From NCBI GenBank assembly GCA_028718605.1, contig JAQULM010000002.1, positions 193,776-257,775 of the forward strand: DNA of 64,000 bases, written 5' to 3'. This DNA comes from Patescibacteria group bacterium. GTDB taxonomy: Bacteria > Patescibacteriota > Patescibacteriia > UBA10025 > JAHIVO01. The text below is the continuation of a report on this DNA, generated by a model with database tools. The stretch itself is not shown here.

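Follow-up and report, generated by a model that had tools for sequence, protein, structure and literature searches.

Reading frame and start codon of the giant gene

The minus strand of the window is free of stop codons from 23144 down to position 1 (7,714 codons), and a public gene call (GCA_028711455.1, contig JAQTSE010000001.1) assigns to this frame a product of 8,379 residues with GTG 23135 as its start codon. The preliminary description had put forward the same start, which is borne out by the public call and by homology. The first residues of the window protein, VQLPALIK, align with MRLPAILK at the annotated start of the family representative P0003, and in the orthologous locus L004 the segment VTFFSKGGKKQK is matched by MNFFSKGSKKQK, with which a second representative, P0005, begins, so that the L004 GTG matches the ATG called as the P0005 start. 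No in-frame ATG was found in the giant frame upstream of the helix-turn-helix (HTH) domain. Among the orthologous loci, the start codon is GTG in ten (L001, L004-L007, L013, L014 and L017-L019) and TTG in three (L008, L016 and L021); judging from these sequences, non-ATG starts lacking a Shine-Dalgarno element are the rule in the window's subfamily, and such starts would fit a low level of expression.

Two independent run-level assemblies (SRR22315508 and SRR22315506) match the region exactly, giving three identical assemblies in all, which speaks against an indel artefact. In a comparison with 11 orthologues, the HTH codons gave pN values of 0.16-0.27 and pS values of 0.54-0.97, the synonymous sites being near saturation. 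The fact that pN lies far below pS, together with the alignment of the N-terminus with that of relatives, indicates that the HTH is translated in the frame of the giant protein.

These observations bear on the most trivial explanation of the fusion, according to which the HTH-coding stretch would be separate or untranslated upstream sequence, mis-assembled, or joined to the giant frame by a frameshift only. The idea draws on the missing Shine-Dalgarno element at GTG 23135, on the absence of an upstream in-frame ATG and on a strong AGGAAGG-N4-ATG signal, which opens a 6-codon ORF (MPTGEK-stop, 23057-23077) one base out of frame. That small ORF is conserved in neither L004 nor L005, however, and starts of the GTG type are usual in the subfamily. 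Moreover, the assemblies agree, the entire N-terminus from the GTG onwards can be aligned to relatives, and purifying selection acts on the HTH frame, which runs on into the transmembrane (TM) segment in more than 30 independent sequences. A variant with initiation at the out-of-frame ATG 23077 and a -1 slip at A_AAG_TAG was rejected on the assemblies, the alignment and the orthologues. The artefact is thus effectively refuted, the chance left to it being negligible, and we regard it as practically certain that the fusion is real and that the HTH is BldC-like. The proposed continuity of HTH, linker, TM helix and giant protein in one frame is confirmed by the open frame, the identical assemblies and the occurrence of the same frame in orthologues.

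Architecture of the N-terminal module

The features of the N-terminal module and of the region preceding it are collected in the table below, the structural data being taken from an AlphaFold2 (AF2) model built on 16 family sequences.

Features of the giant gene and its upstream region (window positions; residues counted from GTG 23135)
Feature	Position	Strand	Evidence and remarks
plsX, upstream gene (PF02504)	23301-24344		gene ends at 23301
plsX intrinsic terminator, GC stem-loop CGCTGGGATTCCCGTGAACCCCAGCG followed by T-run TTTCTTTTGTTTT	23252..23277	-	read from sequence
Promoter-like TGGACA-N17-TATACT, TG extended -10	23203..23231	-	scores 10/12 with TG
Promoter-proximal 9-bp direct repeats CTGTAATGT, TTGGTAAGT, TAAGATTGG, candidate operator	23172..23198	-	
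Second conserved leader block TTGACTAACGTAAGCAC	23152..23168	-	locus alignments
Start codon GTG, no Shine-Dalgarno	23133..23135	-	public call and homology to annotated P0003 N-terminus
Lys/Arg-rich leader, residues 2-29, predicted cytoplasmic	23049..23132	-	pLDDT ~50; pairwise identity 0.28
BldC/Xis-type (MerR-like, HTH_17) winged HTH, residues 30-85	22881..23048	-	pLDDT 94-97; identity 0.64
Disordered Pro/Lys/Gln-rich linker, residues 86-120	22776..22880	-	pLDDT 53-55; identity 0.23
Basic juxtamembrane helix LQYLKLLLISRKF, residues 121-133	22737..22775	-	pairwise identity 0.57
Hydrophobic core, residues 134-160	22656..22736	-	hydropathy scan; pairwise identity 0.56
Ala-Arg-Ala, residues 161-163, signal-peptidase-I-type -3/-1 motif	22647..22655	-	predicted cut A163/E164
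First ecto motif PTRVQGW (P-x3-x-G-W), residues 175-181	22593..22613	-	family P..C.GW; G180 and W181 invariant
Thr/Gly/Ser/Asn-rich giant ectodomain	1..22646	-	runs off window; full product 8,379 aa

In the AF2 model, residues 121-163 form one helix (block-mean pLDDT 78-97), and the secondary-structure call places beta structure from residue 164 onwards. No second hydrophobic segment was found in the visible part of the giant protein or in the ten relatives examined. The stretch preceding the hydrophobic core contains 28 Lys and Arg against 13 Asp and Glu residues, an excess of positive charge that fits a topology with the N-terminus inside. Conservation in the juxtamembrane and hydrophobic parts comes close to that of the HTH itself, which suggests that HTH and helix form a functional membrane module; pairwise identity falls to 0.38 at the mature N-terminus, below the values of both these parts. 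The in-TM-out topology proposed in the preliminary description fits the single hydrophobic helix and its basic N-terminal side, but the permanence of the anchor is doubtful, because the conserved A-x-A suggests cleavage.

A BldC-like DNA-binding domain

The assignment of the domain to HTH_17, which had been made by eye, was upheld by Pfam searches, with HTH_17 (PF12728) scoring 33.0 bits (cut-off 27) and MerR_1 (PF13411) 31.9 bits (cut-off 21.6), both above the curated thresholds. A sequence search of the PDB placed BldC (6AMK, E = 4.5e-6) closest, together with Xis of mycobacteriophage Pukovnik. Foldseek likewise ranked BldC first (6AMK/6AMA, TM 0.84-0.89, rmsd 1.1-1.6 A, 37-42% identity), with Xis and RacA next. 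The best NCBIfam model was NF033787 (HTH_BldC), but its score of 33.7 bits is below the 77-bit cut-off, meaning that the domain is BldC-like rather than a curated BldC orthologue.

Twelve residues of the HTH are invariant in 16 sequences (P32, H47, N49, T50, R52, W54, D55, R64, G66, R68, D70 and R71). BldC contacts DNA through T27, W31, K33, K36 and R47/R48, and binds 9-bp direct repeats as head-to-tail multimers (PMC5859096). The counterparts of these contact residues, T50, W54, K56, K59 and R71/R72, are conserved here, including those that touch phosphates and the minor groove. The base-reading Arg30 of BldC is replaced by Asn, with an Arg one position earlier (TLRNW versus TVTRW), and from this substitution the details of recognition appear to differ from those of BldC. 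The nearest family is BldC, which has the same monomeric architecture. Fold and size also agree with BldC and Xis (e.g., Pukovnik gp37, 4J2N), which are MerR-like winged HTH proteins without coiled-coil or effector domain. The candidate sites described below are tandem direct repeats with a period of 9-10 bp, and by analogy a direct-repeat binding mode shared with BldC is plausible. BldC is, however, a free cytoplasmic protein of 68 residues recognising AATTnnnnC repeats, whereas the domain studied here is part of an exported protein of 8,379 residues, lies ahead of its signal peptide or anchor, and is associated with TTGkTAAGT.

The module departs further from classical MerR regulators, as it has no C-terminal coiled-coil dimerisation helix, the winged HTH being followed by a Pro-rich disordered linker. 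In addition, the MerR operator is a palindrome lying within a 19-20 bp promoter spacer, whereas the spacer here is of 17 bp with the direct repeats outside it. It differs from excisionases in having no integrase nearby, its neighbours being housekeeping genes (plsX, recA, a RodZ-like gene, ftsK and rpoBC); the TIGR01764 'excise' model scored 17 bits, under its cut-off of 28.8 bits.

Fused and split versions of the module

An exhaustive search with residues 1-777 retrieved 2,571 cluster representatives at E <= 1e-3, of which 1,006 reached E <= 1e-30. Family members share the first ~600 residues of the ectodomain and most are thousands of residues long, the sole Pfam match of the giant ectodomain being a sub-threshold MG2. 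Among the best 150 representatives, 25 combine this HTH with a hydrophobic segment that follows at residues ~100-160, the HTH-bearing members being named by NCBI 'helix-turn-helix domain-containing protein [Patescibacteria group bacterium]', a label that conceals the giant, exported nature of the family. The species-representative genome locus L004 (53% identity) has HTH, linker and TM helix in a single frame, and 12 metagenome loci present the same continuous HTH-giant frame; the comparison of orthologues that the preliminary description had called for thus shows the same fusion. A word-index search with the N-terminal 340 residues returned only two unrelated HTH_17 fusions and missed the protein's own entry; a single-sequence scan of metagenome contigs gave no matches, and an alignment-based rescan of such contigs yielded 80 loci.

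In a rough neighbour-joining tree of the ectodomain, the HTH-bearing members are divided among at least three or four clades, with HTH-less clades in between, and the HTHs of all these clades are of one subtype. An old fusion with repeated losses would be the simplest reading of this pattern. The occurrence of the ectodomain family with and without the HTH implies that the latter is not required for export. When six-frame translations were searched with a profile, no separate HTH gene turned up within 3 kb of the HTH-less giants at L009, L010 and L011. As to the other end of the protein, the C-termini of complete relatives displayed no LPXTG, no second TM segment and no Pfam match, and they share an unannotated C-terminal domain ending in ...TEAGxYxxxITYIxTxxF. 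Our guess is that this domain could keep the protein on the cell surface after cleavage, and it is equally a guess that it might be a WxL-like wall-binding domain.

This HTH subtype, HPNTLRNW[DE]...RRDRRY, also appeared in the metagenome scan in the form of ~63 stand-alone genes, each ~60 residues long. In at least 16 loci, such a gene lies directly against the start of a large gene or overlaps with it. The product of the large gene has a classical signal peptide, an A-x-A motif and the N-terminal motif [IL]N[FY]QG[KR]LT, and is cut off by the end of the locus after more than 450 residues; the proteins encoded by these partner genes had no Pfam match. The association between the HTH and large secreted proteins thus exists both fused, within one gene, and unfused, in split operons. 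Elsewhere, stand-alone copies are found in front of genes for restriction-modification, SNF2 helicase or RadC, and some are fused to DNA methylases, settings in which the HTH resembles typical small DNA-binding controller proteins.

A candidate operator upstream of the HTH genes

The plsX terminator and the promoter-like site that precede the giant gene indicate that it constitutes its own transcription unit. The pattern TGGACA-N16-18-TATAMT has this site as its single match in the 64 kb (0.01 expected), and an aligned counterpart of the promoter is found in the orthologous loci L004, L005, L006, L008 and L013-L019. In the fused genes, the repeat and the second block begin only a few bases after a promoter of the form T[GA]GACA-N17-TATAMT, and all three elements are conserved over loci whose proteins are only ~45-50% identical. 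The family consensus of the repeat is a tandem TTGkTAAGT with a 9-bp period (9-10 bp across loci). The window's repeats, located between the -10 element and the start codon, include one strong copy, the middle one (TTGGTAAGT), flanked by degenerate ones; the site of L005 or L017, TTGTTAAGTTTGTTAAGT, is cleaner. The second block takes the family forms GCTAA-n-TTAAGC and TAGCCAAAATTAGC, and is present also at stand-alone HTH loci and at distant fused loci.

A position weight matrix of the first block matched only the repeat site when the 64 kb were scanned. In 794 kb of compared sequence it was possible to find 25 tandem pairs, with 20 of the 25 lying on the same strand, 60-340 nt upstream of a BldC-like HTH gene; according to converted coordinates, four more are apparently just upstream of an HTH gene on the opposite strand. 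The motif precedes 10/15 fused loci, 7/14 split loci with a secreted-protein gene and 3/33 other stand-alone HTH loci, an enrichment over the latter that is significant for the fused (Fisher p = 9e-5) and split (p = 4e-3) classes. Two of the three motif-bearing 'other' loci (L062 and L069) precede secreted-protein genes that had been missed by the regular expression, and for the third (L067) no downstream ORF was obtained. Among the HTH-less relatives, the repeat motif was not found in L009, L011 and L095, and in L010 the leader blocks occur in a weak form.

The possibility of a riboswitch or another leader RNA was considered and dropped in favour of a DNA site, as RNAalifold predicted no consensus pairs in the 5' leader and Rfam offered no credible match for it. 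In the distant fused clade L092-L094, which has ATG starts and short leaders, both blocks lie upstream of the predicted -35, implying that they are DNA and not mRNA elements.

The co-occurrence of a sequence-specific DNA motif with the HTH genes weighs against a different view of the module, in which the HTH would have no business with DNA and would serve in the n-region as a protein-interaction or export-timing device, comparable to RodZ-MreB or to the ESPR and YSIRK extensions. The position of the HTH in these giant proteins, where it forms part of the n-region of a segment resembling a signal peptide, agrees with such a role, as do the long basic N-terminal extensions of the HTH-less representatives P0025, P0046 and P0056; long autotransporter signal sequences offer a precedent, to go by the title of PMC2805444. 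Besides the motif, this view is confronted with the fact that the invariant HTH residues are the DNA contacts of BldC (T, W, K, RR), that the same domain occurs free or before restriction-modification, helicase and methylase genes, and that neither ESPR (PF13018) nor YSIRK (PF04650) was found by Pfam at E <= 1. We consider it improbable.

DNA binding without transcription control is conceivable as well, with the HTH acting as a structural tether of the RacA or transertion kind that would hold the chromosome, or the 25-kb gene, at the membrane or translocon for the minutes over which coupled transcription, translation and export proceed. RacA, a DNA-anchoring MerR-like winged HTH protein, is indeed among the structural matches, the HTH is the first part of the protein to leave the ribosome and its conserved sites lie beside its own promoter; the ToxR literature also describes DNA-membrane tethering, as the title of PMC10629549 conveys. 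Yet the free-standing HTHs of split operons keep the same DNA motif although they have no membrane anchor, and the link to the nascent chain would be lost early if the signal peptide were cleaved. A purely structural tether accordingly seems rather improbable.

Signal peptide or membrane anchor

The HTH-less relatives begin with textbook Sec signal peptides, such as MGGFFVFAILAVFGVWALPALVQA|QSSSE. In HTH-less and HTH-bearing members alike, a small-x-Ala motif is found 7-15 residues (median 10-11) before P..C.GW, with Ala at -1 in 46/50 family members and A, V, S, I, L, G or T at -3. In 16 HTH-bearing sequences, with identities as low as 27%, nothing but A163 is invariant in the stretch from the HTH to the ecto motif. 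Members of a distant HTH-bearing clade display classical n-, h- and c-regions (e.g., RRATVAVGAAMVIFGLGATWPSERALA|DSA), and the window protein itself has a basic n-region (SRKF), an h-region of 27 hydrophobic residues and small residues at -3 and -1 (A-R-A, then E). Since its hydrophobic helix occupies the position of the signal peptide in relatives, the HTH looks like part of a ~130-residue extension of the n-region.

Other features are more typical of an uncleaved signal anchor. The uncharged run measures ~29 residues in the window's subfamily versus ~17-23 in the others, and the AF2 helix continues through A163 without a helix breaker. In addition, the conservation of the juxtamembrane and hydrophobic segments exceeds what a mere export signal would seem to need, and would also fit a permanent anchor. 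Weighing these sequence features, we see the chances of signal-peptidase cleavage after A163 in the window protein as evenly balanced.

Without cleavage, the protein could be a permanent receptor of the ToxR/CadC kind, along the lines of the preliminary description, its ectodomain sensing contact with a surface or host and passing the signal across the membrane to the HTH, which would regulate transcription. The N-in, single-pass topology with a huge external C-terminal part is what such a receptor would have, and the long hydrophobic run, the continuous predicted helix and the identity of 0.56-0.57 in the TM and juxtamembrane segments point the same way. Moreover, two loci (L043 and L063) combine the same HTH and TM segment with an unrelated ectodomain resembling 3-keto-disaccharide hydrolases and have no obvious A-x-A, and membrane-tethered DNA-binding regulators such as ToxR and CadC are an established class, judging by the titles of papers on them. 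The invariant A-x-A is nevertheless homologous to the cleavage site of the relatives' signal peptides, and in split operons the HTH works unconnected to the secreted protein. The linker, with its 35 disordered and non-conserved residues, would be a poor conduit for a conformational signal, and HTH-bearing and HTH-less clades of the ectodomain family are intermingled. On balance, a receptor function is unlikely.

Proposed regulatory mechanism

The interpretation that we favour, to which we give an even chance, is that the co-produced HTH is a dedicated autoregulator of its own giant gene, fused onto the signal peptide and operating through feedback and cleavage. The regulator would have been captured by in-frame fusion onto the signal peptide of the gene that it controls, and one regulator would be made for each surface protein, by fusion in the present case and by translational coupling in the split operons.

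In this model, the HTH would be the first part to come out of the ribosome and would remain cytoplasmic, while the hydrophobic segment would direct the nascent chain to the Sec translocon. The HTH would then bind the tandem TTGkTAAGT repeats at its own promoter, as BldC does on 9-bp repeats, and throttle re-initiation of the 25-kb gene. The resulting negative feedback would probably operate in cis, which is possible in that the HTH should emerge beside its own promoter. Repression is favoured over activation because of the placement of the window's repeats downstream of the predicted -10 element, and the autoregulation step taken separately has an even or slightly better chance of being correct. 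Signal peptidase I would probably cut after A163, generating a free ectoprotein and a membrane-tethered HTH fragment of ~163 residues, from which a site-2 protease might further release the HTH. The full form of the proposal, a signal-peptide-borne transcription factor in which each event of export and cleavage leaves behind one BldC-like repressor and so meters transcription of the 25-kb gene, is more speculative, and we advance it as a tentative possibility.

Patescibacteria (CPR) are ultra-small and mostly epibiotic bacteria, and their giant surface proteins are thought to mediate attachment to the host. To our knowledge, almost nothing is known about gene regulation in this group. The module is widespread and conserved and ties regulation to export for the largest genes of an enigmatic phylum, providing for them a testable regulatory cassette that comprises a BldC-type domain, a candidate operator, and fused and split forms. 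If cleavage and feedback were true, they would represent a new coupling of protein export to transcription, and the BldC family would extend from a developmental regulator of Streptomyces to a widespread controller of cell-surface proteins. Should the idea of a signal-peptide-borne factor hold, the module would be the first case in bacteria of a signal peptide whose n-region is folded and binds DNA, and part of a regulator/operator cassette for large surface proteins conserved across Patescibacteria.

Comparison with known systems

The architecture had been presented in the preliminary description as undescribed, and a full-text literature search agrees with that claim, having found no description of an HTH on the signal peptide of a giant protein, no membrane-anchored BldC- or MerR-type domains and no account of the repeat motif; a preprint on giant genes does not mention the HTH. 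Several known systems nonetheless share part of the design.

ToxR, CadC and TcpP resemble the predicted layout in that a single polypeptide has its DNA-binding domain at the cytoplasmic N-terminus and, behind it, a flexible linker, one membrane helix and an extracytoplasmic C-terminal part. They differ in being uncleaved and in having an OmpR/PhoB-type (Trans_reg_C) winged HTH and a compact periplasmic sensor. Here, the winged HTH is of the MerR/BldC type, the external part is an adhesin-like protein of more than 8,000 residues and the helix carries a conserved signal-peptidase motif. Pfam found only HTH_17 and MerR on the N-terminus of the giant protein, with no Trans_reg_C and no HTH_25.

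RodZ is likewise bitopic with an N-terminal cytoplasmic HTH, but the latter is of the XRE type (HTH_25), the ectodomain is small and there is no signal-peptidase motif; the RodZ HTH binds MreB rather than DNA. The window has a RodZ-like gene of its own at 26972-27664 (HTH_25, 75 bits).

The ESPR of autotransporters and TPS proteins, YSIRK-G/S and KxYKxGKxW resemble the module as conserved extensions of the n-region that are specific to very large surface proteins. These are unfolded motifs of ~25 residues with no nucleic-acid-binding fold, whereas the segment described here has ~130 residues and includes a folded domain. A regulator released from a signal peptide is known from eukaryotic viruses, in the long signal peptide of MMTV (Rem/Env p14), whose n-region is a nucleic-acid-binding regulator that acts after cleavage by signal peptidase. 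It operates from the eukaryotic ER, binds RNA and has no sequence or structural relationship to the module, the resemblance being one of analogy only. From its sequence, the module would work in the manner of a membrane-tethered regulator (ToxR/CadC) or of an extended signal peptide (ESPR/YSIRK), while being a member of neither class.

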